From: Spirogloea muscicola
Lineage: Eukaryota
Direction: 5' to 3'
Length of the DNA stretch: 31,148 nucleotides
NCBI GenBank assembly: GCA_009602725.1
Contig: WELB01000020.1
Location: 1,121,623 to 1,152,770, forward strand
Each line of letters starts with the position of its first letter. The stretch's first letter is position 1. Positions 337 through 30,830 of this stretch are shown here, piece after piece. Made by a program: the position numbers and the translations under genes. Below the pieces are notes generated by a model that did no database searches, was not told where the DNA came from, and saw only the letters and a list, made by a program, of their open reading frames with translations.

Positions 337-372
337 AGAAGAAAGTGCTCGCCCATTGAGGATAGGGGCTGG
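337..372 (-). mobile_element. Ultra-short (~36 nt) retro-insertion of the element's extreme 3' end
   Basis: Reverse complement CCAGCCCCTATCCTCAATGGGCGAGCACTTTCTTCT is nearly identical to 14465-14500. AGCTAAGA repeats at 332-339 and 373-380. Confidence 0.78.
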
Positions 373-1607
373 AGCTAAGAGCGCCCCTCGTCTCTATGAC
401 CTTTGCGGTCTACTCACACTTTGAGAACTTCTCTTTTTGCTCTCTCTGAGTGTCTTCACACCAGCTAGCCATCCGTCAACTGCATGTGATTTAAGTACCA
501 CCCCGCTCTCAGTCAGTCAGGCCCTCAAAATCATGACCCTTTGCTTGCAGCTTCTCCCCTGCTACTTGCACCTCTTGTTCTCCTACTTTCTTGTCCCTCC
601 TTCCTTTGCCTCACTTACAACACACATGTAGGCTCACGAAAGATATCCATGGAGAATGCCATTCATGAAATGTCATTCAGGGCGTCGTGCCAGCGGAGCT
701 GGCTTATTGGTCAACCCATATGGTACTTCACCTACTACCTACTGACAACGTGGATTGGTGGTGGCTTGTGAGGACATGAGAAATACAACCTACTTGTAGA
801 GATTGCCAGTCATGTGAGCTATCGTACATTTTGCTTGCACAGAGCCACTTCAAGACCTCACCATTGATGGTTTCAGTGGTGGAGGCCACAAGGAGGTGTT
901 GGACCAACTGCGTTCTTGCCAACGGCTGACTCAACTCAGAATTCAAGGCACCCACACTATACTATTACTGAAAATCGACCAACAAAGCTGCCATGCACAA
1001 GACAGCACTGATGCTATACAAATGCAGTGACATATGGTGACCCAAATACTCGACCTAGATAGCACCTTAGTCGAGCTCCTGGACAGATATTTTCAATGCA
1101 CCACAGAAAGAGATTCTTCTTGTAGTAATACAGTAGAGCTGAGGAATAAAGCAAGCACTATAACATCACCATCACATGTAGGTGCTGCCGGCTTTGGCAT
1201 GAGGACTTGTTGGATAGGGCAAGGACCTGCAAGGACAGACTCCAATACGTAGTCCTAGACGTGTTGAATGACTTCCATTCCAGCAGTCCTACAAGACTAT
1301 CTTCCTTCGCACAGAGAACTGTAAATTATTTTGATTGATAGCATATCATGCAGAGATATCACGCAAAGTCGAAAGATCAACTTGATAGAGCGGTCGTACT
1401 TTCTTGGGAGTCATGCAATATGCTTGCTGAAGTTTAGGTTTCATGAGGAGGAGATTGCATCGCTTCAGAGTCAAGCAAGCCCCAAATGGGGTGAGCCCCT
1501 TTCCTCCTTATGTCAAGAACAAGCTTGAAGGACGCTCAAATCAGCATACCCTAGTACGTCCATACGTTGACTGAGGGCTTGTTTGCCATTTGGTGACAAT
1601 GACCACA

Positions 1608-2830
1608 TCAATTTTTGATGGCCTTCTTTTTAGGGGGTGGGGGGTTTGGCTTCTTCTTCCCCTTCTTGGTGGACGTGTGCTTCTTACCCTTCTTGGTCGG
1701 TGGTGTGTGCATGCCCTTTGTGGTCGAAGGCTTGGTTGCGGGCTTGGTTGCAGGCTTGACAATGATGACGCCGTTCATGGTGTATAGGAATACACAGTCC
1801 TGGTAATAGTATGTGCCGGCCTGCGCAAAATGCAGAGCACATTCAGGGGCATAGCCATCATCAGAATTGCCTTACACCATTGTAGAAGCAGAGGGTAACT
1901 ATTGGAAAACAGGAACCTAGGCAACAACTATGCGAACGGCTGCATGTGGGTCAGCACTACCACAGTCACGATAAAATTGTAGGCAGGTCAGTACGTGCGA
2001 GCATCTCAGGTAAAAAGCATAGACACAATATGGACGCACCGCGGTGAACGTATATGAGAAGACACCCTTGCCGGTGACATCAACTGGGGCTTTGATTCTC
2101 ATGTCAGGCGGCACGGACTCCACGCAGTGCTGGCGAAGTACAGGAGCAGCATCCATGTAGTACCACGTGCACGTCGTGCCCGGGGCCACTGTGATGGCTG
2201 GGACGGTGATAGGGTAGTACCATGGAATGTGTGAGCATGGGGGAACCTTAGGTAGCACAGGTTGCAAGTGAGGAGGCTTTGGAGGAGGGGCGGCATCTGC
2301 AACAAGGCAGCACAGATGATGGTGATCATAAGCGAGGCAACACAAGCAGAGTGCTTGCTGCCCCTTCGTATAGCCCATCACAGCAGCCCAAACGAGAGAC
2401 GACCACTGCCGAGACTTCTCCAATGTAGACCCTGCAATGGCCGGCCACCACCTCGAGTTAGGGAGACATTGCCACACGGTGGCAAGGGCAGCACCTCCCG
2501 TTGATGACATATACCCCAATGCCACTGAGGAGTCGGCTCTTGGCTCTTCAGGTGCACTCCTCAGCTCCAGTCGGCACCACTTGCCGCCAGCTGCAGAACC
2601 CCTTGGGCAGCTGCACTTGGTCGCACTCTGCTACCCAATGGCGGTTGGACACTATGCCGATGCTGCTTCGTCTTGCCTTTGCCTCACTGCGCCGTTCTCA
2701 TCCATCGGCACATGGAATACCAAGCAGTGCGGTGGGGCGGGATGGCGACCGCGTGGGGACAGCGGGAGCATCGGGGCTTACCCGAGAGAGCCGCGCAGGT
2801 CGCCAGAAGGAGCACCAGGAGCAGCGCCAT
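1608..2830 (-). CDS. Spliced gene: secreted cupredoxin (plastocyanin/amicyanin-like fold) protein with Pro-rich linker and Lys-rich tail, ~172 aa
   Basis: Exons 2830-2782 (gccgccATG; MALLLVLLLATCAALS signal peptide; GTAAGC donor), 2296-2040 (ITVAPGTTCTW…QHCV…FSYTFTA; GTGCGT donor) and 1820-1608 (AGTYYYQDCVFLYTMNGVIIV…KKGKKK…KN*). Phases 1 and 0 are consistent. Extra small exons in intron 1 cannot be excluded. Confidence 0.75.
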
Positions 2831-2947
2831 GGCGGCGGCGAAGGCGGCGGCGGGTTGACCCTGGTCAGCAAGGCGGGCGGAGGGGTGACTGAGAGGAGAC
2901 TGGGAGGGTCTGCTGCAGTAGTAGAAGAAGCCCTCCAGACAGTGAGA

Positions 2948-3301
2948 GACTCTTCCAGTCGAGGGCAGTGGCTGTGATCGGCCAGCCCAGGGAAAGATTG
3001 GACAAAGCTCGAAAGGCGGCAAAACTTAGCCAAAGGGGGCGCGGCTGAGAACAAAAGCCAGCCAGCCCAGAACGGAAGACTTCCAGTAGAGGGCGATGAT
3101 TGCTGTGACCGGCCAGCCCAGGGAAAAGAAACGAACGTAGAAAAAACGGAAAAACAAGGATGAAAAAAGAATGAACAAAGAATGATAGAAAAAGACTTGA
3201 GCTCTCCTAAAGGAGGGGGGGCGGTTGTTATTGGCCAAGAGAGAATAGATCACGATTCGGAGGGGATGGGCGGACGACTCTGCTAGGAGAGGGCGATGGC
3301 T
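2948..3301 (-). repeat. Cluster of five co-oriented 3'-terminal hairpin motifs
   Basis: Copies at ~2948-2988, 3025-3068, 3078-3119, 3207-3236 and 3276-3301. Consensus on minus: GGGCTGGCCRRTCACAGCCAYYGCCCTCTACTGGAAGAGTC. Two copies are degenerate. Confidence 0.75.
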
Positions 3302-3559
3302 CACGCGGTCCACACGCGCGCCGACCGCGCTATGCTGCCTCGGGTCTCGGCGGAGTGCCCCTTTTCCTGCTTCGAGTAATTCTGAATTGCTGTTGCTCAC
3401 TGGTGGATACCGAGCATCCATCTGCATCAATTCATGTTCTGTGTGTAACCTTTTCCTTTTCGGCACCATTTTCGGGCCTGTGTGGCTTTGGATATTGTCC
3501 ATTCATTTCTGGGCTGGCTTTGCTAGCCCCTTCTTCTCTATGGGCGAGCAATTTCTTCT
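3302..3559 (+). mobile_element. 5'-truncated decayed copy (same subfamily as 23742-24226), TSD GATGGCT/GATAGCT
   Basis: Reads HAVHTRADRAM…PASSNSELLLLTGGY(cga, mutated stop). The UTR starts gagcatccatctgcatc like the 23884 copy and ends GGGCGAGCAATTTCTTCT. Confidence 0.8.
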
Positions 3560-4699
3560 GATAGCTGTGATTGGCCAGCCCAAACTAAAGAATGGTCAAC
3601 GGGCTTATGGCCTGGCCTTTCGCCCTCGCGGAGGGGAGCATCTTGGACTGGGCGGGGAATCTCCCTCAAGCCCGGTACCGGATCTTCCTCCCCCAGGTAA
3701 GAGTCGGTGTGTGTGGTCAAGCCACCTCCCCGCCGACGCGGGGCCCACAGACATGGCGGGCACGTCGCTCCGTCGTGGGCCCGGCGGCCGGTCCGCCGCC
3801 ACAACCACCGACGGCAGGCAGGACCTTCTCTCGCGGTAGTCAAGAGGGTCGTGTGTGCTACATAGCATTGGCTTGAGATTGGCCACTCTTTCATTTCGTG
3901 GGCACCGCGCGTTTCAGCGCTTTTCATGTAGCCCGAAGTTTGCACTAGCTTTGCCCGAACAATGTATTGGCATGACTCAGCCACCCTTCGATTCGTACGC
4001 ACCTTCATCTTGGCCCCTGTGAACTTTGTTTGTCCTTGGGCTGGCCAGTCTGCAGCCATCGCCCTCTACTGAAGAGACTTCTCTCCAGGCCGGCCTCAAG
4101 CTGGCCTCCCCCGGGCCTCATTCGCGAGACGCTGGAAACGAAGTATGCATTTCCGAAGGCAATTTCCCCAGCCTTTCCTTTGGGATGACCAATCACAGCC
4201 ATCGCCCACTACTGACAGAGTCTTCTTCCAAACGGGGTTGTCGTGCGGTCTCCCGTCGGTGGCTCACTTGTATGGCTCATTCGTGTCGACCTGGCAAGGA
4301 TATTGAGGTGGCGCCACACGGGGCCATCTAACGGGTGGACTAACGTTTCCGGGTCCAGAAATCGAGCCATAGACCCGAAAGCCCTGGGCACATCGATGGC
4401 CAAAGAGAAGCCAAAAAGCCCTTGTAGAAAACAGCTCTTCCATATTGACAGCAATGGCTGTGAGAGGCCAGCCCAAAGGATTGGACAAGGAATGGACAAG
4501 CCCTTAGGCTCGTCCGCTCCGATGGGCGTGACCCACCTTGACAGTCTTAACAGATGTCGTTCTACCTATCGTCCGTGGCGGATTCGCGTTCGATTGAAAG
4601 GATGCGGAGGTGGCTGCTCACGCGAATCTCCGAGGAACGTCATTCACCAGCAGGTTTTTTTATTTTGTGGATGTTTTGGAGGGTGTTTCCCAAAGTAGC

Positions 4700-5830
4700 T
4701 TGGTTTGAAGGAATTTAAAAGCGTGGCACCTCCGACCTGGGTCAGGGAATGCCGCCCGCCCGTGCCTCTACCTGGCAATCGGCGCGCAAGCCCAGTTTGC
4801 GCCCGCGCCGCTCAAAGAAGAGCTCAATGCCAAGCGCGCCGGTCACTTCATGACGCATATGACGCATATGTAGCTTCGGCGGACCAAATGGTACCGGTAA
4901 CTTGACTACACCGTATATGTAGCTAAGTAGGATGCCGGGTGCGGAGTACGGAGGCTCCGGGCCTCGTGCTGCGCTCCCACCGCCCAGGCGGGCCGGCTCG
5001 GTGTGAGACAGCCCCCAGAATCCGTATTTGCCTTTGTAATTGGCCACTCAGACCCTCCATCACTCAGTATCAGCAGCCGCAATCTTCATCACTCAATACA
5101 CACCCCAATTTTCTGAACCTGTGCTCTCGGGCCCCCAACGCCCAAGTCGCGCGGTCCCGGGCAGGTCATTGGACCAGCTCGTCTCTGAGTCCGTGCCTCC
5201 TGCGCCGCGTGCCACGCGCCCACTTGACTCACTCCGTGCGCGCACCTAGAATCGAATTTCCAACGTTCAGCCCGCAACTCCGGCGGTGGACCTTGGGGCT
5301 GGCCAATCACAGCCACCGCCCTCCACTGGACGAGTCTTTCTTCTTGGGCTGCCCTCAACATGTCCTCTGGGGAATTGGAGTGTGGGTTGAGGGACTAAGG
5401 GCCTGAGTGGCCAAGTACAAAGGCAAGCACATTGACAGCTGTACGTCACCTGCTGCTAAGCGAAACTCGGGGGAGAGATGGCAGGCGAAGCGCCTACAAG
5501 CAGTGGGCCGAGGCCTGACTCAGCAGTCGGACCAGTGACGCCCCGGGGGGCACAACCCTGCTGCTGCCTGCTGCACAGCCCGTCGCCACAGCTCATCGCT
5601 GCGGGCCATCGCCGGCTCTCTGCAACTGCTGTGGCTGCGCCCCATGTGGGAACAGCTTCTAAGCCGCTGACCCACAGTAAATCCCTGCGGTCTGGCGGTG
5701 CCTCAGGGAAAGACTTCCGCTGCGCTTCGGCGCGTGGGTGCGCTGTGTGCACTGGCGTTTCTCTCTGTGAGATGATTTTGTCAGAAACCCTCTATGTCCG
5801 AACCCCACAAAGGACGCTCTGACCCTGATA
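4700..5830. repeat. Unclassified ~1 kb interspersed repeat, homologous to ~27520-28550
   Basis: Colinear shared blocks: TGTAGCTAAGTA, GACCAGCTC, CAGCCCGTCGCC(A/G)CAGCTCATCGCTGCGGGCC, GGCGGTGCCTCAGGG…AAGACTTCCGCTGCGCT. Confidence 0.7.
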
Positions 5831-7009
5831 GGTGCCAGGCTGTCATCGTCACAGGTCGGGGGTCAGCATGGTGGAGCGTGTCAAGCCCCAGCAGTGCTCG
5901 TACCCGGTCGGCGGTTTCCTGCCGCGCCTGGCGCTGTCTCCGTCCCGACCAAGGGACGGCCTCGTCGGACTAAGTTGCAACGGCAGGCGAGTGGCAGGTC
6001 ACGGGCTGGCAAAGCCGTGCAACACCTATATTGGTCACATGGTGTGCACCAACGTCGGCACTGATGGTCGCTTGGCGTGCAGTGACGTTGGCACTGCTCT
6101 GTCCAGACACTTTGTGACACCTACAGCGTCGCCTGGCGCACACCAATATCAGCACTGGTCTAAGAAGACACATATCTCTCGTCCTGCCGTCAGCTACGCT
6201 GGTGCAGGAATTACTCGTTGCTCAGCTGTGGGCAAAGCACATGAGTCTGCAAAGCGGAGGCGCATTTCTTTTCTCAAAGAGCTTCCCCCTAGACCTTGTC
6301 CATTCCTTGGCGCTGGCCGTTGACAGGCTCCTTCTGGACAAGCCTTATGTGGCCCATCCGTGGCCCATCGTGGCCAGCTTGACTAGCTACTGTATTCTGC
6401 CATGTGAATGCTGTGTTGGCTTCCTCCCTGAAACTTGTCCGCTTGGCCACTCGAGTCTATTTGAGCTTTAGCGCTTTTCTGGCCCCTTGGTACTTCCTTT
6501 GTACTGGTCTGGGCTGGCAATCACGGCCATCGCCCTCTACTGACAGAGTCTATCCGACTTTGGGGCTGGCCTTCGCAGCCACCGCCTCTTCTATACGTGC
6601 TTCTATCTCCTTCAAAATGAGGCCTTTAAAGGGGGGGCAACACAGGGATAATTACACCGGGTGATGACGTGCCGCTGTGCTGCCACTCTGACAGCAATAT
6701 CGGGAACGCGCCGAGGCCGAGGACCGGCAAGTTGGCTGCGACGAAGAGCGCCAGGTGGGACACTGGCGTGTGCCGCAAAAAGATGGCTCGCTGACTACCA
6801 CTTCAAGCCTGTATTGAACACTAAAATCCTAAAGCCGTAGTAGTTGTAACAACAGAAATTTTCATCTGTACAATGCACGTATCTCTAGTAGTACCTAGCG
6901 GATCCGACTTCTAAGTTCACCTAGGTGACGTGTCGAGTGGGTCTGGTGGGTGACGATGTGGGCGCAGTATGCATGTCGGGTTCCTGTGCTGGCTCCTAAG
7001 ACGGGGGCT

Positions 7010-7257
7010 TCCGCACTTGTTTGTGGAGATCACCCGCCTGGCCTGCGGATGTCTGAGCAGGCACCCTTGGTGGTTACATTTGATCATGCTCCTAGGCCCA
7101 CTACTTAATGCGATCTGCATTTGCTGACTAGAGGTCATTAAGCGTCCATTCGCAGAATTTACAGGGAGTATTTAGGACTTTCCTGCAACTTCTGGCCATT
7201 CGCATGCTGTTCACTTCGTATAGGCTGGCCTCTCACAGCCATGGCCTTACAATAGGG
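7010..7257 (+). mobile_element. Highly decayed 3' remnant of the CRE-like family
   Basis: GAT CTG CAT TTG CTG ACT AGA GGT CAT TAA (DLHLLTRGH*) at ~7112-7141, followed ~80 nt later by GGCTGgcctctcaCAGCC. Confidence 0.6.
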
Positions 7258-7996
7258 TAATCATCTCGTTTCCGGGACTTGTTGCAGCTTTGCCGGTCTG
7301 GCTTCCCATGGCTCTCGCCCCCTTCCAAAGAAGTGAGCTCTTCCAGCGGGGGCGAGGGCTGCGAAAAGCCAGCCCCATAAGATTGGACAGGTCTGAAGGG
7401 GCCAAGAAGCGCTGAAACACACTACTAAATAGTGTACTCTGTAAACTCTTGACTACTAGCTTCATATGGTCTAGGTCTAGCTGTCTTGTGTGGAGCTGCG
7501 TCTTGGGGATGCTCATCACGGACAATGGTAGGCGATACATAGGAGGGCTCAGGTATTATCCCAGCAGGTTGGTAGATCGATGGATCTCCACCGTAAGGTT
7601 TGGAGTCGACCCGTGGAATCCAGACCGTTGGGCGCTAGGGGGCGATGGTGTATTAGAAAGAAATGTAGGCCAAATGGCCAGGTACAAAGGCAAGCACATA
7701 CCAAAATCTACATAACCTACAGGTTATGTAGGCGCGCTAGGGCGCGCCGCCGGGCCGGGGTCATCAGACACTGGAGGGAAGGCGCGCGGTGCGCATGGAA
7801 TTTAAGCGAGGCCAATTCAAGCCAATACATTGTTCAGGCACTGTGAAGTACAAATGAGCTTTTCATCCACTTCAGCCAGCGCGTAAAGCACTCCTTCCCT
7901 GTACGCCCTTACTACACAGTTCAATCATGCCACTGACAAAGTGCGACTGTTAGCAAACCGGTGATCACTTAAGTAGAGCTGTGAGGAGCAACATAC

Positions 7997-8085: not shown

Positions 8086-8236
8086 CTGCAAAACAAAGAA
8101 GAACTGGGACTGTTGGAGAGGGCACAATCAACGTACTACTACCGAAACCAAGAGGTGGTCGATTTTTGACATTATAATGTATATGCATCATAATTCAAAA
8201 GTTCTCTATCTTCCTTCTACATCAGCCAGGGAACGC

Positions 8237-8338
8237 TCAGTAACCTCTAGTCAAGAGATGCAAATCTGAGTAGCTAGCTGGCGGAAAGACGTCGCCCTGA
8301 CGGAAGCCGGAGGCCGCCGCCAAAGCTCGGCCTTCTAC
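8237..8338 (-). mobile_element. Short C-terminal remnant of the CRE-like family
   Basis: The minus strand reads GRALAAASGFRQGDVFPPASYSDLHLLTRGY*. Confidence 0.8.
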
Positions 8339-9046
8339 AGAGCATAGAAGGTCAGTCCTGCTGCTCCAGCTGTCCTAAGAAGGGCAGTTGGCGCTTGCTC
8401 GTCTCAACACGTGCGGGCCCGCCTCGTCCGGTCGCTCCCCAGTTGCCGCCGTGTCGGTCACCGCCGCGGTCGCCGCCGCTGTGGCCGCCGTTTCCGCCAC
8501 GCCATGGCTCAACAAGTGGGACGGTAACACTTGTCAAGGTCAGCTAGGCATGAAAACTCCCCTACTTGTTTTGATCTGCCCTTGCTAGGTAGAGATTGTA
8601 ATGCGCCCACATGCAGAGGTCACGGCTAGTGACTTAATGCTTTTCTGCGCCTTTCGGCCCTATCAGACCTTGTAGCTTATCGTCGAAGAGTCGTTCTTTT
8701 TACTAGTAGGTCACTCATTCTATTACTGGGCTGGCCAATCACAGCCATCGCCCTTTACTGGAAGAATCTACTTTCCCTTATACATCCCGTTGGTCTGGCC
8801 TGTCAGAGCCTCTCATCAGAAGAAAGTGCTCGCCCATAGAGGAGAGGGGCTGGCAAAACCAGCCCAGAAAGTGTAACGAATTTACATGGCTGGAATGTCA
8901 ATGCAGCTGTAATGTATTGACAGATGCCTGGAGATTAGATACCTCATCCGGCTGATAAATAAATTGACTGTCAGTGCCGCAGGAAAGGCTTGACAGATGC
9001 CTGGAGACGGACAATTTCACCAGGCTGGGCAGCGTGGCTTTGATAT

Positions 9047-9993
9047 AGAAGAAAGTGCTCGCCCATTGAGAATAGGGGCTGGAATAACCAGCCCGAAAAA
9101 GAATGAACAGAGTACGAGAAGGGGGCCAGGGGAAGCGCTAAGTAACAGAAACAAAGCTGCTACGAGACACTCAGTAACCCCTGCTAAGCAGCCGCAGATC
9201 AGAGATGCTGGGCTCCTGGAAGTGGGTCCCCTGGCCAGAGCCAGAGGCAGCAGCGAGGGCTCTGCCGGCACGAAGGTGCAGCGCCCGGGCCATGGACCTC
9301 TGCAGCGAGACGGCCAGGCGCATTCGATACACTTGCGCCAGCGACCCGGCTGCAGGGAAGTCAACCGGCTCCCCATGGAAGCGCCGGGCGATGGTGTGGC
9401 GGGCGAGCTGGGTGAGCAGCTCGAGCCACCGAGCGCCCAGCGCCCCATGTGTGTCGATGGCCAACGGGAAGAACTCGTCTTCCCGCGGATGATCCGCGTA
9501 CTTCAGCTCTTTGGCCCGAGCAGCGCAGGCGACCGCATACCCAGCCGTGGTGGCACATTTGGCTGGGTGTGAGCGGTCATAGGCATCAGTAGTCACCACG
9601 TCCAGGAGAAGACGTGGCCCGCCGGCCTGTCGGGTGGCCACCAGGTCTACACGCCTGGCATGGAGACCGTCGGCCCTGTGCTGGATTGGCATGATTCCGG
9701 AGTGCTCTGCTGCCACGGAGAAACCAGCCTCCAACAGGATGCCATGCATTACGTCGCGGAGGCGGTCGTGGGCCGCTGTCCGCTCTCCGCCGTGGGAACA
9801 GCGCAGAACATGAGCAGCCAGCTCTCCAGGCTCGGTCCCGCGCTCGCCACACTCACATTGACGCACACCCTGGAGACATGGCGGCAGTAGGCCCAGGAGC
9901 CGGTGGACGGCACTTCGGAATACCTCGTCCGGGAGGGTGAGGGCGTCGTAGAGGGGGAGGGCCTGGAGCCACGCCGCAGCCCCCGGGGAAGAG
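9047..9993 (-). mobile_element. 5'-truncated, near-identical inverted copy of the element's last 947 bp (13554-14500)
   Basis: ORF 9171-9866 translates identically to the polyprotein C-terminus. Coordinates mirror without indels (9171+14376 = 9047+14500 = 9993+13554). One substitution seen, in the hairpin loop (ttatt vs ttgtt). Confidence 0.95.
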
Positions 9994-10476
9994 CATGCAG
10001 AGTCTGCTAAAAGAGAGAAGCGCTAAAAGCTCTGAAAGCCTACAGGCATATACCAAGATGACGACATGCCAAGCGGGGGAAACGAGATCCTGTAGCCGAC
10101 AGGGGAAAAGTAGGAATCACGTGAAAGGTTCCAGGGCTTGAGACAAGAGAATGAGCTCGCCCATAGAAGAGGGGCTGGCAGAAGCCACTCAGAAAAGGAT
10201 GGACAAAGTCCAAAGGGCCACAACAGGTGCCGAGAGATAGGGCTAGGTCCTGAATAGGGTTCAGGTGTGGTTCTCCGAGCGACTCGTAGCTGCTTTGTTT
10301 CTGTGTGTGCTTGTTTTTCTTAGCGCTTCGACCAGACCCCCTTCTCGTACGTTGTTCGTTCTTCTTTGGGCTGGCTGCAGCGCACACCATCCATCTGGTC
10401 GCGGGCGCCGCCGCCGCGGCCGCCACCCCTCTTAAACCCCGGGCCGCCGCCGGCGCCGTCGCCGGCGGCGCCCGCC

Positions 10477-13400
10477 ATGGGGTCCGCGGCGGCGTGCAGC
10501 TCTCGGCGCCGCCCTCGGAGCCGGAGTCCCGAACTTCCCCCGGCCAAGTTCGCGTGGGCGCAGCGGTTTCTCACCCTCGCCGCCTTCCATGCCGCCACCA
10601 CGCCACCTCCGCCGCAGCCCCCCCTTCTTCCGCCGTCGCCACCCTCGCCTGCGAAGCCCCCGCGCGCGCCGTGCCCCACCTGCCCGCGGGATTTCGCAAC
10701 TCCCCATGGTGTCTCTGTGCATCGGCGACACTGCAAGGGGCATGCCAGCCCCACCGGCCCGCCGCCCGCAGCGGCCGTCGCGGCTTGCAGCCCCATCGTC
10801 CAGGCCCTGGCATCCACTCGGGCGGAGCATTCCACGGAGCATTCCACGGAGCATTCCACGGAGGCCACTACTCTATCGCCTCCCGCCCGAGAGAAGTGTC
10901 GGGCACCAACGTTATCGCCTCCACCCCTGAGAAGCGAGGGGACCCACGAGGTGACCACGCTCCTCCATCCTCAGGGTACCATGTCCCATGTGCTCGGCCC
11001 TGACGCCCCTGAGTGTGCTTCTCCGGCGACAGTGGTGCGGCAGCCGCTACCGCCCGCCGAGCCGTCGTCACCACAGCCGCCGACGTCCCCACCGCCCCCA
11101 CCTCCTCCGACGCCGCCTTCCCGATCATCCGCCATCCCGCCTCTCGAGCCGCCCAGCCTTCCACAGTCGGCGCCATCGACGCCCCCCCCATCTCCGCCGC
11201 CTCCACCCCCGCCGAGCGAGCCGGCTCCACCGCCGTCGCCCTCTCCTCCCTCGCCCGACCCGCCTCGGTGCCAGCTTTGCCAGAGGACCTTCACCACGCG
11301 GTCCGGCCGGTCCAACCACCAGCGAACTTGCGCGGGCAACATCAACCGTGCGGAGCAGGCGCGGAGCGCAGCGGCGGCGGGTGGTCGTCGGGGCAGACCA
11401 GGCAGGCCTCCCGCGCCGTCCCCGCCCACGCCTCACCACTGGCAGTGGCTGGCCGACCTTGACCTGGCCGCAGTTCACCGCCAGGCGGCCCTGCCGCTCC
11501 TACGCCATGTTCCACGCTGGGCACGCCCACACCTCCGCCGCGCGCTCCGCCCGGTGACACAGCGGATCGTCGTGGACCACAGAGACGAGGCGGCGTGGAA
11601 GCTGTTCATCCTCTTCCCCCGGCTGTTGCTCGGGCGGGTCTCTCTCGACAGCCGCAAGCAGGGCCAGCAGCCCCTCTTGGAACGCGTCCAGTTGTTCGAG
11701 AGCGGGCACTGGGAGGAGCTCCTGGCGAGGCACGACGCAGCCGTGGCGGCATCCGAAGCCAACCGTGGTGGTCGAGGGGCAACACACGACCGGGCCGCCA
11801 GCGTCCGCAGGGCTCTTCGCTACGGCCACGCGGGCGAGCTCTCCCGGGCTGTGCAGGCCCTGGACGATGCGATGCTGGCGCCGACCAATGCGGCAACCCG
11901 GGCGGCTCTGGACTCCCTCCACCCCCCGTCCAGCTCCCCCCTGCCACCGTGGTTGGCCGCGTTCGCCCCGCCGGAGGAGGTGGTCTTGGACGCCGACGCC
12001 CTCATGAAGGCTCTCCAGACCAGCCGTCGCGCAGCCGCCGGCGGCCCCTCCCGCATGCTAACTGAGCACCTGCGGGAGATCTTCCTTGAGGGTGAGGCAA
12101 CAGACTTCAACGCGCTGCTGCAGATCTGCCAGCATATGGCCCGCGACAATGTGCCGGCCAGCATCCGCGGCGTACTGTGCACCAGCACGCTGCTCGCCCT
12201 CGACAAGCCGAGCGGGGGAGTCAGGCCCATTGCCATTGGGGAGGTCCTGTACCGCCTGGTGAGCCGCGTACTCTGGCAGCAGCATGCGGGGCCGGCGCAG
12301 GTGCACATGGCGCCACACCAGTACGGCGCGGGGCTGCGGAGTGGGGGCGAGGCCGTCGTCCATGGGGTTCGTGCGACCTTGGACCAGCACCCGGGGTGGC
12401 TGGTGCTGGCCGTTGACGTGAAGAATGCCTTCAACACTGTGGAGCGCGCCAGCATTGCGGAGGAGCTCCGGGCATCCTTCCCCTCCCTGGTACCCTTTTT
12501 CCGCTTGGGGTACGGTCAGCCCAGCGACCTCCTCTGGCGGACAGGGGGAGATCAAGTGGAGGTCCTGCAGTCCCAAGCGGGCACGCGGCAAGGAGACCCC
12601 CTCGCCGGCTTCTACTTTGCGCTCGCTCACCACCGGGCCCTGCAGGCAACCGCCGCGGCACACCCAGGAGTCCTACTCCCCTCCTTCGCGGACGACACCA
12701 CCATCGTCGGCCCTCCGGAAGACGTGGCGGCGGCCTTCATCACCCTTGAGCTGCAGCTGGCCACCCTCGGCCTGTCCACCCGGGCGTCAAAGTGCGCGGC
12801 CTGGTCTCCCAGCGGCCTCCCACCCAACCTGACGCTGCCCACCGGCTGCCAAACTCCAGCAGATGGCTTCACCCTGCTGGGGGTCCCCATCGGCGCGCCG
12901 TCCTTCGTGGAGGGGCAGCTGCGAGCCCGCCTGGCGGAGCACCTTCAGCCTGCGGCCCGGCTTCCCGAGCTGGACGACATGCAACTATCGCTGGCCATGT
13001 TGACCAGGGCCATTGGGCAGCGGCCCCAGTACCTGACGCGGGCCACTCCGCCGTCCCCTGGGGCGTTGGCAGCGTATGCAGATTTCGATGCAAGCATGGT
13101 GGCGAGCTTGGCGGCCCTGGTCCGCCACCAGGGCTTCCTCCAGTCGCCAGCAGCTATCCACCAGGCGGCGCTACCCCTCAGCCACGGTGGTCTCGGCCTG
13201 CGCCCGCTCGCTCGTTCTTGCCGGGCGGCATACCTCGGCAGCTGGGCGCAGACTGCCGCCTCCGTGGCCCAGCGCTTCTTGGTCCACGGCCGGCGGGCAC
13301 TGGAGCAGGCGGTGGCGGAGGTCGACATGGGCCCGCTGCCGTTCCAGGTGTCGCTTCGCTCCGCCCACCAGGAGCTGCTCGCGGCGCACCCGGACCTGGC

Positions 13401-14376
13401 CGGCCAGGCGGTATCCTTTGCGCACCTCGCGCACACCGCCGACTTGCGCGTCCAAGCGCGCATCGCGGCAGTGGTCGACAAGGCCGCCTACACCACCGCC
13501 GTGCTCCAGCTCCCCGAGGCCGACTTGCGCGGGCGCGCGAGACTCCACTCGGCCTCTTCCCCGGGGGCTGCGGCGTGGCTCCAGGCCCTCCCCCTCTACG
13601 ACGCCCTCACCCTCCCGGACGAGGTATTCCGAAGTGCCGTCCACCGGCTCCTGGGCCTACTGCCGCCATGTCTCCAGGGTGTGCGTCAATGTGAGTGTGG
13701 CGAGCGCGGGACCGAGCCTGGAGAGCTGGCTGCTCATGTTCTGCGCTGTTCCCACGGCGGAGAGCGGACAGCGGCCCACGACCGCCTCCGCGACGTAATG
13801 CATGGCATCCTGTTGGAGGCTGGTTTCTCCGTGGCAGCAGAGCACTCCGGAATCATGCCAATCCAGCACAGGGCCGACGGTCTCCATGCCAGGCGTGTAG
13901 ACCTGGTGGCCACCCGACAGGCCGGCGGGCCACGTCTTCTCCTGGACGTGGTGACTACTGATGCCTATGACCGCTCACACCCAGCCAAATGTGCCACCAC
14001 GGCTGGGTATGCGGTCGCCTGCGCTGCTCGGGCCAAAGAGCTGAAGTACGCGGATCATCCGCGGGAAGACGAGTTCTTCCCGTTGGCCATCGACACACAT
14101 GGGGCGCTGGGCGCTCGGTGGCTCGAGCTGCTCACCCAGCTCGCCCGCCACACCATCGCCCGGCGCTTCCATGGGGAGCCGGTTGACTTCCCTGCAGCCG
14201 GGTCGCTGGCGCAAGTGTATCGAATGCGCCTGGCCGTCTCGCTGCAGAGGTCCATGGCCCGGGCGCTGCACCTTCGTGCCGGCAGAGCCCTCGCTGCTGC
14301 CTCTGGCTCTGGCCAGGGGACCCACTTCCAGGAGCCCAGCATCTCTGATCTGCGGCTGCTTAGCAGGGGTTACTGA
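10477..14376 (+). CDS. Non-LTR retrotransposon polyprotein (ZnF-ZnF-RT-CCHC-RLE), CRE-clade-like, ~1299 aa
   Basis: Open frame 10366-14376; first in-frame ATG at 10477 in strong context (cccgccATGG). Zinc fingers CPTC-x12-HRRHC (~10672) and CQLC-x12-HQRTC (~11269). RT motifs GGVRPIAIGE, VDVKNAFN, GTRQGDPL, FADD, LLGVPIG. Thumb/linker LPLSHGGLGL and AWLQALP. CECG...HVLRC knuckle. RLE motifs AHDRLRD, RVDL, LLDV, KELKY, FFPLAIDTHGALG. No APE, integrase or GIY-YIG domain. Confidence 0.93.
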   Translation: MGSAAACSSRRRPRSRSPELPPAKFAWAQRFLTLAAFHAATTPPPPQPPLLPPSPPSPAKPPRAPCPTCPRDFATPHGVSVHRRHCKGHASPTGPPPAAAVAACSPIVQALASTRAEHSTEHSTEHSTEATTLSPPAREKCRAPTLSPPPLRSEGTHEVTTLLHPQGTMSHVLGPDAPECASPATVVRQPLPPAEPSSPQPPTSPPPPPPPTPPSRSSAIPPLEPPSLPQSAPSTPPPSPPPPPPPSEPAPPPSPSPPSPDPPRCQLCQRTFTTRSGRSNHQRTCAGNINRAEQARSAAAAGGRRGRPGRPPAPSPPTPHHWQWLADLDLAAVHRQAALPLLRHVPRWARPHLRRALRPVTQRIVVDHRDEAAWKLFILFPRLLLGRVSLDSRKQGQQPLLERVQLFESGHWEELLARHDAAVAASEANRGGRGATHDRAASVRRALRYGHAGELSRAVQALDDAMLAPTNAATRAALDSLHPPSSSPLPPWLAAFAPPEEVVLDADALMKALQTSRRAAAGGPSRMLTEHLREIFLEGEATDFNALLQICQHMARDNVPASIRGVLCTSTLLALDKPSGGVRPIAIGEVLYRLVSRVLWQQHAGPAQVHMAPHQYGAGLRSGGEAVVHGVRATLDQHPGWLVLAVDVKNAFNTVERASIAEELRASFPSLVPFFRLGYGQPSDLLWRTGGDQVEVLQSQAGTRQGDPLAGFYFALAHHRALQATAAAHPGVLLPSFADDTTIVGPPEDVAAAFITLELQLATLGLSTRASKCAAWSPSGLPPNLTLPTGCQTPADGFTLLGVPIGAPSFVEGQLRARLAEHLQPAARLPELDDMQLSLAMLTRAIGQRPQYLTRATPPSPGALAAYADFDASMVASLAALVRHQGFLQSPAAIHQAALPLSHGGLGLRPLARSCRAAYLGSWAQTAASVAQRFLVHGRRALEQAVAEVDMGPLPFQVSLRSAHQELLAAHPDLAGQAVSFAHLAHTADLRVQARIAAVVDKAAYTTAVLQLPEADLRGRARLHSASSPGAAAWLQALPLYDALTLPDEVFRSAVHRLLGLLPPCLQGVRQCECGERGTEPGELAAHVLRCSHGGERTAAHDRLRDVMHGILLEAGFSVAAEHSGIMPIQHRADGLHARRVDLVATRQAGGPRLLLDVVTTDAYDRSHPAKCATTAGYAVACAARAKELKYADHPREDEFFPLAIDTHGALGARWLELLTQLARHTIARRFHGEPVDFPAAGSLAQVYRMRLAVSLQRSMARALHLRAGRALAAASGSGQGTHFQEPSISDLRLLSRGY
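10824..10863 (+). repeat. 12-bp coding tandem repeat (STEH units) in the retroelement ORF
   Basis: GGAGCATTCCAC occurs three times. Confidence 0.85.
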
Positions 14377-14756
14377 GTGTCTCGTAGCAGCTTTGTTTCT
14401 GTTACTTAGCGCTTCCCCTGGCCCCCTTCTCGTACTCTGTTCATTCTTTTTCGGGCTGGTTGTTCCAGCCCCTATTCTCAATGGGCGAGCACTTTCTTCT
14501 CCTGGACCCTTGCCCCTGCAGTAACCGTTGCTCATTTTACCGTTGCGGCCCCATCCCAATGCCTCCCGCTTTTCCTTGCGCCGCCGGCAGCCCGGGCTTG
14601 GCGATCCACAGCATTCGTTACAGAAAGAGTGGACCATCAATGTCCAGAGCCCAAAAGAGGAATGGAAGAGGCGTCGGAAAAAGGACTACACTACAAAAGG
14701 ACTACACAAGACGCCCACTTCTGGAACGGAAACAGTGTTGTTGTCATTCACTTTTA

Positions 14757-14841
14757 GGCTGGCTTTTCCAGCCCCTATTCTCAATGGGCGAGCACTTTTC
14801 TATTCCAGCCCCTATCCTCAATGGGCGAGGCACTTCCTTCT
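14757..14841 (+). repeat. Two tandem 3'-terminal motifs (subfamily A)
   Basis: GGCTGGcttttCCAGCCCCTATTCTCAATGGGCGAGCAC is followed directly by TTCCAGCCCCTATCCTCAATGGGCGAGGCAC. Confidence 0.85.
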
Positions 14842-15129: not shown

Positions 15130-15553
15130 CCTGGGGGACGGGGCGGTGGTCAGCGCATTCGCAGAGCTTTGGACGCGGCGCAGCTCATCCGCAGGACCGT
15201 AGATGTGGCCAGCACCCCCCTCCCCACCGAAAGTCGGAGCGCCGCCCGGCCCCGCGGCATCCCCTCACGTGCCTTTGGGTCTGGTGTCCTGCTACCGTAT
15301 GCGACTGTCTATGTCCCTGCAGCGCTCCCAAGCGCTTGCTCTGCACCGCCGCGCTGGTCGCGCCCTTGCAGCAGCCTCTGGCTTGCGCAGCGGGGTTGCT
15401 CCTCCTCCCCTCAGCTCATCTGACTTGCTACTGCTGACACGGGGGTATTGAGGGCGCCCTGCCTGCCTAGCCTACGGCTCCGTCATGAACACCTGTACGC
15501 ATCTGGCTGGCATTTCACAGCCGATTCTTTCATATCAGCAGCCGCTTTCTTCT
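15130..15553 (+). mobile_element. Decayed 3' fragment of another subfamily (subfamily C UTR)
   Basis: CYRMRLSMSLQRSQALALHRRAGRALAAASG…SSDLLLLTRGY* (stop 15451). The UTR carries GGCTGgcatttcaCAGCC and ends GCTTTCTTCT. The 5' limit is approximate. Confidence 0.8.
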
Positions 15554-15592
15554 CACCGCCGCCGCCAGCCGCCAGTACCGCCGCCGCCGCCG

Positions 15593-22792: not shown

Positions 22793-23741
22793 CAGAAATT
22801 AGCACAGGTTTTGGACACCTCTGAGGGCTTATGTAGTACCACGTACATGAGATAAGAGCAAGAGTAGGCTGAACAACCACAGAGCCACCTCGAAGATGGT
22901 GGTGCAGGTTCACATTGCTAAGACAATGGGCACAACTGTGAAACGTGTGCTGAAGTTCACAGGCGCCTCTCTCTCTTTAGGCAATGCATCTGCGTCGTGA
23001 GGTCCATGGGGCAAGCAAACAATTACTGCATTTGCGGTGAATTTATTCGTTGGATTTTAACTGGACTGGATTATGGGATTGGAATTGGAATGGAGTTCAA
23101 TCAGTATGGAGCCGAATCTCTCTGAGTCCAAAAAGTCAAGCAGTAGGCAGGCCGCAATCGCCATAATTATCCCTCTATGTTGCTAAGAATCTGGGTGGTC
23201 AAATAAGGGTATAATCTCACATGAGCTTTTACTGCAATCGAGGAATGTCATTCAAGAGGAGCAGCGGCATGGGATACGTGCTATCATGTGCAGGAGGCAG
23301 AACGCATCTACGAGCATGCAGTCCTGTAGCGCGCTGAATTGGTGCACATACATCAATATCTTTGCCTCTGAGTTCATGCCACGACCGCTTGAGTTGGTCG
23401 AGATATAGGTTTGACTTGCAGTGTAGCCTCACTGTGTCATACTAGGTTGCGGTTGAGGTGACAAGTGCTGCTTCAGTAGAAGGAGCTCCTTGATGATCAG
23501 CATTCTGAAGGCTGAGCTAGAGCCACATCGTCGGCTCTTCATGTCGTTGTTGACAACAATCAGTGGTCATGTATGTGGGCAAGTATTTGTTCTGCTGTAC
23601 CTGCCCGAAATGGCGCTGTTGCGGTGGCCAGCGCTTTGAAGGTAGGGAGCGGAGCTGGCACTGTGCAGGATGTGAGTGTGGTGATCCGGTGCACCAGCGA
23701 CTAGGGCGGGGAGCCATGACTCAGCCCAGTAGGCCGTAGGA

Positions 23742-24226
23742 AGAAGGTGCTCGCCCATTGAGAAGAGGGGCTGCAAAGCCAACCCAAAAAGAATGGACAA
23801 TGTTCAACGCCAAAGAAAGAGGTGCTGAAAAAGGACTACACTACAAAGTGCAAGATGGTGCAGAGGGAGATGCAGATGGCTGCTCAGTATCCACGTGTGA
23901 GCAACAGCAGATCAGAGTAACTCGGAGCAGGAGAAGCGGCACTTTGCCGAGACCCGGAAGCAGCAGCCATAGCACGGCCAGCCCGCGCGTGGACCGCATG
24001 AGCCAAAGAGCGCTGCAGCGAGACCGCCAGCCTCATCCGAAAGACCTGCGAGAGGGAGCCGGCAGCATTGAAGCCTGGCGAACCCTGCCGCCGCTCGATG
24101 GCCTCCCGGGCAAGCCGCTGGAGGAGATCCAACCAGCCACTGCCAAATGCCCCGTGTACGTCAATGGCCAGTGCCGCGAAGGCATCGCCTGGAGGGTGGT
24201 CAGAGTACTTGCGCTCCTTACTCCGA
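23742..24226 (-). mobile_element. 5'-truncated copy of a related CRE-like subfamily, TSD GTAGGA
   Basis: Encodes KERKYSDHPPGDAFAALAIDVHGAFG…RMRLAVSLQRS…SDLLLLTRGY* (stop at 23884) plus a 3' UTR with the terminal motif. GTAGGA at 23736-23741 and 24227-24232; the paralogous site 27222-27230 (gcaggagcg) is empty. Confidence 0.9.
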
Positions 24227-24336
24227 GTAGGAGCGCTCCCTTGCGAAGAGAAGCAGCTTCCAAAGCGGGCGAAAAATGGTGAAATAACGAAACTAATGGA
24301 AAGAACAAAGAATGAAGTAGCTCTTCCAACGAAGGC

Positions 24337-24997
24337 GGGTTTGATGCGCGACGCCACGTACCCTGCGGTCGTGGAAATGAACAACATCATGCCTATCACC
24401 ACGGATGCCCAGGGACGTCATCATCGCCGCACACTTGACATTGTGGGCGTGCAATCTGGTGGAGGACCACGGCCTTGGTCGATGTTGTTGCTACGGAGGC
24501 ATATAAAGGTCCAGCATCGACGCACATCGCTGGCCACGCAGTCGGCTGTGCAGAACAAAGAAAGCTGCAGCTCTTCTCCAATACCCCCAATGCGATCAGC
24601 TCCTGCCAGCTGCAGTTGACATCTTTGGCTGTTTGGGTCCTCGTTTCCACACTCTCCTTCAGAATGTTGCCAATCTAGGCTATGCACGACGTGCAGATGT
24701 GTTTCCGGCTGGGATGGGCCTGCCAGCTGCATATCTGTCGTTCTTGCGACGACGCGTTTCGGCCTGTCTGCAGCTTGCTCAGGCTAATGCTTTGCACGAG
24801 AAAGTTGGGCGAGCTCTAGTTGGTGGTAGAAGGGCTTCATATCGGCCATCTGGTATTCAGGCATCGATTAGCGACTTTCATGTATTGACCCGTGGTAACT
24901 GAGCAGGTCAATCTGCTGTAGGTGATGTACGACTCTAGATGTGCTTGCCTTTGTACTTGGCCATTGGGCCTTTCTTTGTTTCAAAATAACGTAAATC
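24337..24997 (+). mobile_element. Decayed 5'-truncated copy of a more distant subfamily (RLE domain + 3' UTR)
   Basis: Frameshifted NIMPI…RRTLDIV / VDVVATEAY…AGHAVGCAEQRKL / RRRVSACLQLAQANALH…SISDFHVLTRGN* (24902). Flanked by an imperfect ~16-17 bp duplication (24321-24336 / 24998-25014). Confidence 0.82.
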
Positions 24998-25416
24998 CTC
25001 TTACAATGCGAGGCAACGGTTGTGAGAGGCCAGCCCAAAGCTTTAATTCTGGGCCGCAGCACCCTGCTGCCCATGGAGTTTTACGGTTAGTGCTAGGAAT
25101 GAATGGAGAGGTAGTTGAACGTGCAGAACCCCGTTCTGGATTACTTCATCGAGGTACAGAAAAATTGATCGAATGCAAGAGTTACTCACTAGCTTTGCCT
25201 TCTTTTGATCGTTAAGACTACGTTTCTATGGTGGCACAAGATCGTGTCCAAATTTGGAGTGTCTCAGGCACATTGGGCTTATTCTGAGTACGAGACAACC
25301 ATGCTGCTCCGGTGCGCCCTAGCTATGGCGGCCACTTCAGTGCAGGCGGAGCGTGTGCTAGCTGGTCCTTTCTGCCGCAATCTGCCGATATTCAGTCTGC
25401 ACCTCAACAGCTGAGT

Positions 25417-26336: not shown

Positions 26337-27396
26337 CAGAGTATGGCACAGGTTTTGAACAACTCGAAGGGCTGAATTAGCACCACTTACATGAGATAGA
26401 GCAAGAGAAGGCTGAGTAAATACAGAGCCAGCTCGAAGGTGATGGTGCAGGTTCGTAATGCTCAGGCAATGGGCACAACTGAAACTCTATATCGAAGTCC
26501 ATCGAAGTCCACAGGCAGCTCTCTCTCTTTTTGTAATGCAGCTGCTGCGTCCTGAGGTGCATGAGCACCGTGGGGCAAGCAAACCCTTACGGCAATAGAT
26601 TTGATCAGCCAACATCGTCTGATGTCTTAAAAGGGAAGCAGTAGGCAGGCCACATTGCAGTGATTTTGCTCTCATACTCTTAAGAAACTGGTGCCATAGA
26701 AGGTATAATATGATACGAGGTTGTACGAGTACTGCAGAATGGTCTTTCATTCAAGAGGAGCAGCGGCATGGAAGACGTGCTGTTATGTGCAGGAGGAGAA
26801 CGCTTCGTCTCTACAAACATGCACCTTTGTAGCGTGCTGCGTGGGTGCGCATCCATCAATGTCTGTTGCCGCTGCATTCATGCCATGATCGATTGAGTCG
26901 GTCGAGATATGGCTTTGACTTGCAATGTAGAATCGTGTCAGACTAGTTTGCGGCTGAGGCAAGAAGCATTGCTTCAAACGAAGGAGCTTCGTGACGATTA
27001 GCACATCGAAGGCTGAGCCGAGCCGCATCTTTGGCTCTTAGTGTCGACAACAATCATTGGTCATATATGTGGGCAAGTACTTGTTTTGCTGTAGCTGCAC
27101 AAAATGGCAGTGGCCAGCGCTTTGTAGGTAGAGAGCGAAGCTGACAATGTGCAGGATGTGAGTGTGGTGATACGGTGCACCAGCAACTAGGGTGGGGAGC
27201 CATGACTCAACCCAGTAGGCCGCAGGAGCGTAAACGCTGGCATTTGTTTCTTGTACACGGAATTTCAAAGGAGGAAAATAAATGAATTTTAAAAAAAACT
27301 TGAAAAAGATTAACAAAAGTAGCTCTTCCAATGCAAGGCAACGGCTGTGAGAGGCCAGTCCAATGCATTGTACAAGTACGGAGTGTCTCGGCACAT

Positions 27397-27507
27397 CAAC
27401 TAGAATGGAATGCGGCTGTTGATATAAAAGGAGCGGCTGTAAAATGCCAGCCAGGTGTATACAGGTGTCCGTGGTGGAGCCACAGGCTAGGCAGACAGGG
27501 CGCTCTT
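27397..27507 (-). mobile_element. 111-bp UTR-only insertion (subfamily C) with a perfect 15-bp TSD
   Basis: AGTGTCTCGGCACAT at 27382-27396 and 27508-27522. The insert matches the UTR at 15449-15553. The paralogous site ~25258-25273 is empty. Confidence 0.88.
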
Positions 27508-27519
27508 AGTGTCTCGGCA

Positions 27520-28550: not shown

Positions 28551-30643
28551 CTGTGTGATTAGAGCAGAGATGTCACAAAATCTCATCAGCAGAAGTTATA
28601 TGGATTGACAATTTCATGGAAGTGTACTCGCTAACTGGTGTCAATACAAAGATTGACTACAGTGGTGGTCTGACTTCATGCGCTTGACGATTTGCGTATC
28701 TTGCCGTGCAGATTCTTGACGGTTGCTCGTATTTGTCAATTTACAACGGCGACGAGGTGGCTGCAAACGTTGATATAATGGCGGACCACATCTTGATCTG
28801 TTGTTGAACAAGTCGTTAGCACGGCACCTCCGGCTCATCTTCGCTCCAGGCTTATACCCTGTCTACCCCCCACAGATGGCATCGGGGCACATCTATCATG
28901 CCGCCAGTGTTGCTAACATAGAAGACCACAAGATAGCCGAAAGCCCATGAACCCGCTATGCAGGGTGTGACCCACCTTGACGAGTTGTGGCGGGTACCGG
29001 CTAGACTGCGGCAGAGTAAGAAGGTAAATGGGTTGAAGTGATGGTCCTTGAACCGCAACTGAAGCAAAAAAGGCGATCCACCATAAACTCCACGTCGTCA
29101 CTAGATTCGCTAGTTAGTACATCTTGTAGATCTGTGGGTCACAGGCTATACTGGCCGCTGGGATCTGGAATATAAACGAAAGAAAGCTTTTCCAACAGGG
29201 GGCACTGGCTGTTAATGGCCAGGCCAAAGAAGTTTGGACAAGGTTCGAAGGGGCAGAAAGCACAAAATCATAATACTACGGCAGAGACTACAACGACTTG
29301 GTGTTCAGTAACGCCATGTCAGCAGCCGAGAGACAGAGTAGCGTAGGGATGACTGGCACATTCTGGTAGAATTGCAGAGCTTTTCTTAAGCGCAGCGTGC
29401 TGCGCTTGAGAGAGCTGGGTGTGATAGACTTGTGGGCTCCTAGAGGGCTCCTGGTCTGTGATGCTCTGAAGCTCATGATGGTCTGTAGCTGCACTTTGGA
29501 GGACGCCAGATACATAGTTGGAAGGTAAAGCGTGGCAGGTGCCAGCTTCGACACGGAACAAAGTTCCGCTGGCTCGCTCGCCACAGGTGTTCTGCATGTG
29601 CTCACCAGTCTCGCTCCAGCGTCCCAGGATATTGCCTGCACTTGCGGGCAGGCCGTGCTTTGGCAGCTGCTTCTGGGTAATGCCGTTGTAACACTTTTCG
29701 GGCAATCGTTTCTTCTGACTTGCAGCTGCTGACTGAGCACCCACTTGTAGTAGCCAATTGCGCAGCTGTGTGGTCTAGCGCTGCCACGTCGGGCTTTATC
29801 CTGATGCGACTGCTTTGCTCGGCTGCGCCCTAGCTATTTGGCCTTCCATTATTGCAATACACGTAAGTCCTTGCTGTAGCTACCGGCCAGGGGTGCCGCT
29901 CTGTGTGCGGCCAGGCGGCACCCGTGCTAGTCCAGTCTCTGTGTGCGGCTAGGCAGAGCTTTGCGCTACTCAGGCCTTGTGTGCTACCACACTGACCTCT
30001 GTGTGTCACAATGAGCGGAACTGCGCTTGCACCGCCAACACGAGGGCGGTCTGCTGGGTTTTGGAGAAGGGCAAACGCCCAATGGAGGACTCTGAGGGGG
30101 GAGGAGAAGGAGCTGAGAGGTTTGATTACAGAAGACAGGAGCAGGAGCAGTAGCAGCAAGATCAAGAAGACTTTCGACCACCCCCCCAGCCCAAGCACTA
30201 CGTGGACCACCGATGCAGCAGAGCTGCCAGCCATGCGCAACGACCGACCAGGCTCCACAGGAGCACCAGGCTCTGTAGGAGCCCTAGTCCGTTGGTTCGA
30301 GAAAGCGCAGCCAGCTAGCCAGATCCAAGGGCGGAGTCCTCGCTTCGGGACTTGGTTCAGTACTTTTGAGCTGTCGCCACTATGACATCGATAATTTGAA
30401 TATGCCTTATCATCGTTATGTGTCATTCCTTTATTTGACAAGATAGATTGAATGAAAGGCTTCTCTTCTGCCAACTCTATGATCTTGAGATGAGAAAAGA
30501 TTAAGAATGTTGAAGAAAAAACTCTAGTCGTGAAGATGACGTGAATTTCTCCACAGGGTATGTGGACTTTTGCTCATTAAGACATGTAGCCACTTGCATA
30601 ACTGTGTGGATTCGGCCTCTCCGACCATTTCCAGTTCCTATAA

Positions 30644-30830
30644 GCTGGCATTCCACAGCCCTCGCCGCCACTGGAAGAGCGACTTCCTTTCGCGCTGGCC
30701 GCTGGCAGCCATCGCCTTGCTTTGGTAGGGCTCTATCACTGTCAAAGTCGGTTGGTTGGTTGGTTGGTCGTTTGGTTGTTCTCTTTTTGGTGAGCTGGGC
30801 TTTGACAGCCCTCGCTGCCATCGTAAGAGC
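30644..30830 (+). repeat. Three co-oriented 3'-terminal motifs
   Basis: GCTGgcattccaCAGCCctcgccgccacTGGAAGAG (~30644); GCTGgccgctggCAGCCatcgccttgcttTGGTAGGG (~30694); GCTGggctttgaCAGCCctcgctgccatcGTAAGAG (~30794). Confidence 0.7.

Follow-up and report, generated by a model that had tools for sequence, protein, structure and literature searches.

A 31,148-nt stretch of the Spirogloea muscicola genome (contig WELB01000020.1, positions 1,121,623 to 1,152,770; hereafter the window, in which all positions below are counted) carries about 30 copies of one motif, a GGCTG-loop-CAGCC hairpin followed by a spacer, a box and a TTC-rich tail. [quoted passage not shown] The scattered copies are likely 5′-truncated products of target-primed reverse transcription, and hairpin, box and tail are likely part of the RNA signal. 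The family is seen directly in an intact element, in the linkage of the motif to the ends of open reading frames (ORFs), in a sharp end lacking poly(A), in short inserts bounded by target-site duplications (TSDs) and in a strong bias towards the 3′ end.

The estimate of about 30 copies in the initial annotation of this DNA proved right. Regular expressions built on its A and B motifs gave 11 and 20 matches (22 distinct places), whereas 20 shuffles averaged 0.1 and 0.05. A profile hidden Markov model (HMM) of the motif found 29 copies in the window at E<0.01 and 35 at E<0.5, 26 of the 29 being its own seeds and therefore matching by construction, and had no match at E<0.01 in 11 control sequences. 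Part of the counted copies are halves of split motifs (3274-3301/3564-3591 and 10347-10376/14801-14838). A tandem-repeat check gave the motif no tandem-repeat character, and searches of the window against Rfam and for tRNAs returned no match.

The intact element and its linked relatives

One element, of subfamily A1, is intact. Its single ORF (10477..14376, +), analysed by Pfam, alignment and structure modelling, encodes a protein of 1299 amino acids (aa) that contains, in order, two C2H2-like fingers, a Pro-rich spacer, the RT, a CCHC knuckle and the C-terminal RLE. The RT domain was identified as PF00078 (E 8e-16), and the N-terminal fingers are two CX2CX12HX3C motifs that Pfam assigned to zf-C2H2_4 at just E 0.097. 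The C, C, H and C of the knuckle before the RLE are invariant in 16 sequences, with a CX1CX12HX3C spacing that differs from the CX2-3CX7-8HX4C published for RLE elements (PMC5678591). The RLE has no Pfam domain match; its putative PD-(D/E)xK-like residues are H775 and D816, invariant in 16 sequences, and the near-invariant K861, and the order of strands and helices around them in the model fits a putative endonuclease of this type. The C-terminal 973 residues were modelled with AlphaFold (pLDDT 87), and the RT-linker-RLE portion of the model aligns to R2 structures; the top seven fold matches in PDB are all R2 proteins (E 3e-23 to 2e-18, TM ~0.5), as are the best PDB matches by sequence (E 7e-7). 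The protein thus has the layout of an RLE non-LTR element, one ORF with RT (by PF00078) and then a C-terminal endonuclease (by the model).

The 3′ untranslated region (UTR) of this element (14377..14500, +) is as initially described, with the hairpin at 14453-14471, a 10-nt spacer, the box at 14482-14489 and a TTC-rich tail to 14500 without poly(A). Directly 3′ of it, 14501-14700 holds a repeated stretch that finishes in a degenerate B-like hairpin (14594) and, after that, some A2-type UTR sequence in inverted orientation. Among proteins, the best matches are eukprot gene models carrying pieces of this RT-RLE family, one of them 100% identical over 8% of the query, and four such models contain several different ORF ends. 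The public gene models P0001, P0003, P0004 and P0007 are chimeras of several element ends joined to host exons, and the family thereby distorts host annotation. Among relatives assigned to a species, Closterium proteins come nearest, at 32-41% identity; RT-RLE proteins from Closterium spp. and metagenomes are 33-41% identical over the RT-RLE.

In seven of the ten ORF ends in the window, the stop is followed by a hairpin at a distance of 53-99 nt. Two of these ends are A1, two are A2, and one each is C, B2 and B (the copy at 29224). The ORF-end remnants before the hairpins at 3512, 7223, 9093, 14454, 15505 and 23784 were strong by peptide score among 34 positions tested; the one before 29224 scored weakly but also belongs to repeat family D15. 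The initial annotation had counted at least six copies 60-150 nt after a 'DLxLLTRGY*' remnant; seven are found, and the lower bound moves to 53 nt, the distance in the C copy (15281..15552, +; ORF end, UTR and hairpin 15505-15522). The C-termini of A1, A2 and C are 64-70% aa identical, in agreement with the proposal that the motif is common to the 3′ termini of several RT-RLE subfamilies. B-type motifs, which by the initial annotation's own test should then also be found at RT-RLE ORF ends, occur there in a B2 copy (7112..7268, +; ORF-end remnant, then hairpin 7223-7240) and in the B copy at 29177..29354 (-), whose degenerate remnant, identified by family D15 and peptide score, lies 80 nt before the hairpin. 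In addition, seven contigs of run X2 join the ORF-end region 7133-7157 to a B2 hairpin with other letters in between. Thus, B-type ends belong to the RT-RLE family. As for the 22 copies without an ORF end, 10 have an upstream score above the gene-region background, and 6 of these also exceed their own shuffles.

3′ ends and truncated copies

The 3′ end of A1 is sharp. The full-length element and a 947-nt copy diverge at 14500, and this is also where 76 contigs of run X1 pass from the element into mixed flanks (agreement 0.36), without poly(A). None of nine well-defined A and C ends is followed by poly(A) either, and the earlier claim of poly(A)-less ends is thereby upheld. The 947-nt copy (9047..9993, -) is 5′-truncated, is found in inverted orientation some 400 nt ahead of the intact element and differs from 13554-14500 (+) at a single position, which points to a very recent, probably local event. 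Given this one difference in 947 nt the family looks young; it also looks intact and abundant.

Most copies appear to be short. Summed contig depth over 14311-14497 is 51-75 times that over 10571-11131 in run X1 and about 65 times in run X6, where it falls four-fold from 14124-14310 to 13937-14123; summed depth is no copy number and mixes subfamilies, and its steepness points to copies mostly a few hundred nt long. Three inserts bounded by TSDs measure 111, 124 and 258 nt. The first, of C type (27397..27507, -), has a perfect 15-bp TSD (27382-27396/27508-27522) that is present as a single site in a tandem paralogue at 25258. The second is an A-type end (337..460, -) with a 7-bp TSD (330-336/461-467), and the third an A2 copy with an ORF remnant (3302..3559, +) and a 7-bp TSD with one mismatch (3295-3301/3560-3566). 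The two 7-bp TSDs do not exceed the null by themselves and are backed by other evidence, the boundary of a sister copy for the 258-nt insert and, for the 124-nt insert, one copy of the 7-mer at the matching place in a diverged paralogue (30311). Another 5′-truncated A2 copy, carrying the RLE C-terminus (23741..24219, -), has a paralogous site without the insert near 27227. The tandem duplication that supplies two of these empty sites (21894-23741 and 25449-27227; period ~3.5 kb, 77-82% identical) contains Cys-rich ORFs with no Pfam match.

Truncated 5′ ends, intact 3′ ends and TSDs of variable length are traits of RLE non-LTR elements. The claim that copies are mostly 5′-truncated stood on the short TSD-bounded inserts and the 3′ depth bias. 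The proposed range of 35-250 nt holds roughly for the TSD-bounded inserts; others reach 947 nt, >470 nt and 4.1 kb, and a TSD was found neither for the full-length element nor for the 947-nt copy. What had been called a micro-insertion system is ordinary 5′ truncation, for which Cnl1, with insertions of 180 bp to 3.5 kb, is a precedent (PMC12810828). Helitron or miniature inverted-repeat (MITE) ends were dropped as candidates, since the motif comes after RT-RLE ORF ends in a constant orientation and the inserts have TSDs and ragged 5′ ends.

Several observations weigh against reading the motif as the 3′ end of the RT-RLE family and part of its RNA signal. Three of the ten ORF ends, at 24899 (+), 8240 (-) and 29734 (+), have no motif after them, and for 12 of the 22 unlinked copies the upstream homology to the UTR does not exceed background. 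None of the eight copies of B1, the commonest type, has an ORF remnant in the window by peptide and DNA profile. An automatic TSD search rose above its null for just 1 of 31 copies (15 bp, the 111-nt insert). In the stem, none of the four consensus pairs has a double change, and covariation is scored at 0.068 (shuffles, 0.063); a folding score below z=-2 is reached by only 2 of 26 cores, and folding of the antisense strand is equally good. Some of the seven X2 contigs may be homologous loci and not new insertions, and runs X1 and X2 may be the window's own source. Among the ends without the motif, subfamily D (24338..24985, +; RLE C-terminus with ~35% aa identity to A1) finishes differently, in a shorter GGCC-loop-GGCC with no spacer or box, and further D ends lie at ~7653-7722 (-) and 5400-5445 (-). 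The other two, found by peptide profile, are a remnant of subfamily E (8240..8335, -) and a broken remnant (29636..29740, +).

The lack of ORF remnants before B1 would also fit a separate, non-autonomous element resembling a short interspersed nuclear element (SINE) with a borrowed tail from a long interspersed nuclear element (LINE). A second non-coding block of about 45 nt, shared by 3867-3911 (+), 3960-4010 (+) and 7783-7826 (-), would serve such an element as well; it stands once before a B1 copy and may be the upstream UTR of another subfamily. The window shows no Pol III-derived head (no tRNA or Rfam match), the other B types are ORF-linked, and UTR blocks that stand upstream in ORF-linked copies recur in the B1 copies at 2987 and 6512. 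We therefore regard a SINE-like origin as quite unlikely and, from the UTR blocks of these two copies, tentatively place B1 in the RT-RLE family.

The hairpin as probable template signal and possible landing site

The hairpin has a stem core of 5 bp, extended to 7 bp in A types, and across subfamilies the stem is conserved and the loop variable, a trait of stringent LINEs. In the five ORF-linked subfamilies the hairpin is 67-89% identical and the preceding UTR 38-59%. The better conservation of the hairpin argues that it is under constraint. The covariation that the initial annotation proposed to look for was not found in the nearly invariant stem. With no compensatory change and weak, strand-blind folding, an RNA structure is unsupported by the fold data, and the invariance of the stem is no argument either way. 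A second conserved helix in spacer and box, also considered, is absent from the consensus fold. By analogy with known retrotransposons, the hairpin is nonetheless the likely means by which the enzyme recognises its own RNA.

It has been proposed that hairpin and box, some 45 nt, are the whole signal and that the enzyme is specialised for very short cDNAs. The hairpin is indeed the best conserved part of the UTR, several copies show homology over just 40-65 nt, and depth over the B3 hairpin is ~30 times that of the adjoining UTR. On the other hand, conserved UTR blocks 15-60 nt upstream of the hairpin are common to A, B and C types, and UTR-like sequence stands beside the hairpin in 23 and 52 contigs; the 52 run on upstream of the B3 hairpin (agreement 0.5), whose copy in the window (7328..7420, -) has the upstream blocks by HMM, contigs and UTR comparison. 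These blocks and flanks leave 45 nt as the whole signal unsupported. Full-length and 947-nt copies exist, subfamily D ends differently, and R2Bm needs two stem-loops for tight binding (PMC11194090). With no covariation in the stem and UTR homology extending ~60 nt upstream, the claim of a minimal ~45-nt signal is not supported, and we judge this proposal unlikely.

Following R2 and L2 work, we suppose that the protein, like those of stringent LINEs and R2, would bind its 3′ UTR in cis, that the enzyme would nick DNA with loose specificity, that priming would take place at the TTC tail and that reverse transcription would usually stop after 100-500 nt. The stem is common to the subfamilies, loop and spacer may confer subfamily identity, and copies accumulate between genes, often adjoining each other.

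Some copies are nested in the 3′ ends of others. The 258-nt A2 insert, antisense to the B1 copy that it splits, lies 2-3 nt 3′ of that copy's hairpin and has 5 nt of microhomology at its 5′ junction; the halves of the B1 motif (3274..3591, -; by HMM) are 3564-3591 and 3274-3301. Directly before the full-length element, an A-type UTR of another subfamily (10277..10376, +) is cut in its hairpin loop, and at 14738..14840 (+) an A-type end runs straight into a second A-type motif, of which loop, 3′ arm and box are present. We infer that 10277-10376 is the left half of a motif whose right half is 14801-14838; with the UTR stopping in the loop at 10376 and resuming from 14801, 4.4 kb including the intact element was likely inserted into the loop. 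Other contigs contain joints from 14500 to 14752, 14763 or 14764, with two contigs each for two of the joints listed.

These cases raise the possibility that GGCTG-N7-8-CAGCC is also read as DNA by the fingers or endonuclease, such that 3′ ends already in place, of whatever subfamily, would receive new copies within or next to them, an addition compatible with a role in RNA recognition. The nested A2 insert with its TSD, the motif split in its loop around 10377-14800 and the end-to-hairpin joints all favour it, and an invariant, non-covarying stem fits a read-out of DNA sequence. Copies are also clustered, with a median of 108 nt between neighbours against 176 nt (p=0.004), GCTGG or CCAGC occurs within 25 nt of 10 of 30 ends against 11.5% (p=0.0013, the best of 12 post hoc tests), and a report on Cnl1 describes insertion into its own copies (PMC12810828). 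Against it, there is no excess of 3′ ends lying at most 15 nt from another copy (6 of 30, where 18% are expected; p=0.46), and with a limit of 100 nt they number 14 of 30 (p=0.07); nine flanks show no fixed-position consensus, the 76 contigs at 14500 agree poorly (0.36), and purging of insertions from genes would cluster copies too. Strict self-targeting was rejected on the missing junction enrichment and the mixed flanks. We treat nesting into older hairpins as a lead rather than a result and self-targeting as a possible but unlikely addition. That a 17-19-nt inverted repeat doubles as the core of the RNA template signal and as a preferred DNA landing site, sending short copies into the family's own old 3′ ends and away from genes, is a little more doubtful still.

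Head-to-tail runs of copies could alternatively be single events in which the RT jumps between 3′ RNA fragments, with no serial insertion. R2 RT does template-jump (PMC8857657), 13 of 20 close neighbours have the same orientation, and ends abut hairpins at 6558, 14800 and 30689. Yet jumping can produce neither antisense nesting nor the 3′-truncated left halves (10376, 3564), no TSD was found around a whole run, and 13 against 7 is a weak excess. Such an origin of the runs seems very unlikely.

Other features of the window and known systems

Further motif copies, identified by the HMM, form small groups. B1/B motifs stand head-to-tail at 2944..3237 (-; 2944-3001, 3080-3139 and a degenerate one at 3198-3237), two B1 copies at 4021-4086 (+) and 4173-4229 (+) precede a B2 copy at 4427-4492 (-) within 4021..4492, and three B motifs follow one another at 6291..6598 (+; 6291-6326, 6490-6553 and 6557-6598), as do three B3/B motifs at 30628..30835 (+). 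At 8710..8879, a B1 copy (8710-8775, +) and a degenerate B copy (8781-8810, +) are followed by an abutting A end (8818-8879, -). The B1 motif at 5287..5345 (+) lacks upstream UTR homology, and an A3-type UTR with its motif lies at 10146..10250 (-), both by HMM and UTR comparison; a B2 motif at 24993..25047 (-), from repeat families and HMM, has a paralogue at 27313-27376 (-). No copy was found at E<0.5 in 15551-23739, the region of a leucine-rich-repeat (LRR) gene and of duplicated genes; selection by itself could account for this. The LRR gene (~15580-21500, +) is a multi-exon receptor-like gene (LRRNT_2, E 2e-5) whose introns are free of the motif. The non-coding stretch 6250-7138 has two or three diverged homologues in run X2 (depth ~200, against 55-68), which resembles the situation of a polyploid or duplicated genome. 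The repeat pairs 52-251/29978-30178 and 5466-5745/28177-28478, 72-87% identical in aligned parts, are unexplained.

The Spirogloea family is apparently an undescribed CRE-like RLE family of a streptophyte alga, with an ordinary mechanism, the CRE affinity resting on architecture and on the RT motif style (RPIAIGE, NAFN, QGDPL), which we take to be CRE-like. No description of it was found in the literature searched, chiefly open papers, with Repbase and Dfam outside the search. CRE-type elements have a single ORF, one or two N-terminal zinc fingers, an RT, a C-terminal RLE and TSDs of variable length (PMC12278014, PMC3636483), and in these respects the Spirogloea family resembles CRE1/SLACS/CZAR, Cnl1 (TSDs of 0-13 bp; PMC12810828) and MoTeR. 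In contrast to trypanosomatid CRE, in which a poly(A) tail is general (PMC12278014), it ends in a TTC-rich tail; it is dispersed in many subfamilies, and no spliced-leader (SL) RNA or telomere-repeat target was seen, the 3′ flanks being mixed and the window without an Rfam match. R2 (R2Bm, R2Tg) is the best PDB match by sequence and fold at ~16% identity, and its 3′ UTR RNA is the template signal, the role proposed here for the UTR of the Spirogloea family. The Spirogloea family nevertheless lacks the rDNA target of R2 and has one short stem where the R2Bm 3′ UTR core has two stem-loops (PMC11194090).

Shared 3′ stems with differing loops link the family to the stringent LINEs ZfL2-1, ZfL2-2 and UnaL2 of the L2 clade, whose 3′ stem-loop has a shared stem and an element-specific loop and is needed for retrotransposition, the stem of ZfL2 elements being recognised generally and the loop specifically (PMC4176376). 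Those elements carry an apurinic/apyrimidinic endonuclease (APE) in place of the RLE, and their stem-loop was established by assay, that of the Spirogloea family by conservation. In 80 metagenome relatives more distant than the Closterium and metagenome RT-RLE proteins above (23-38% identity) the motif is absent (best E 0.92), and a loose stem occurs in 2 of 59 relative loci having an RLE end. Several of these relatives (L016, L074, L022, L026, L045, L079 and L043) have TAACCC, GA or TAGTG repeats at their ends, a hint that sister families may target telomeres or microsatellites.

RLE enzymes are a class now used for gene insertion, and to our knowledge RLE elements are little described in the algal relatives of green plants. 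The subfamilies in Spirogloea, alike in stem but different in loop, form a natural series with which the L2 rule of stem and loop recognition would become testable for an RLE enzyme. Should the hairpin serve as DNA target as well, the family would have a neat self-limiting strategy.

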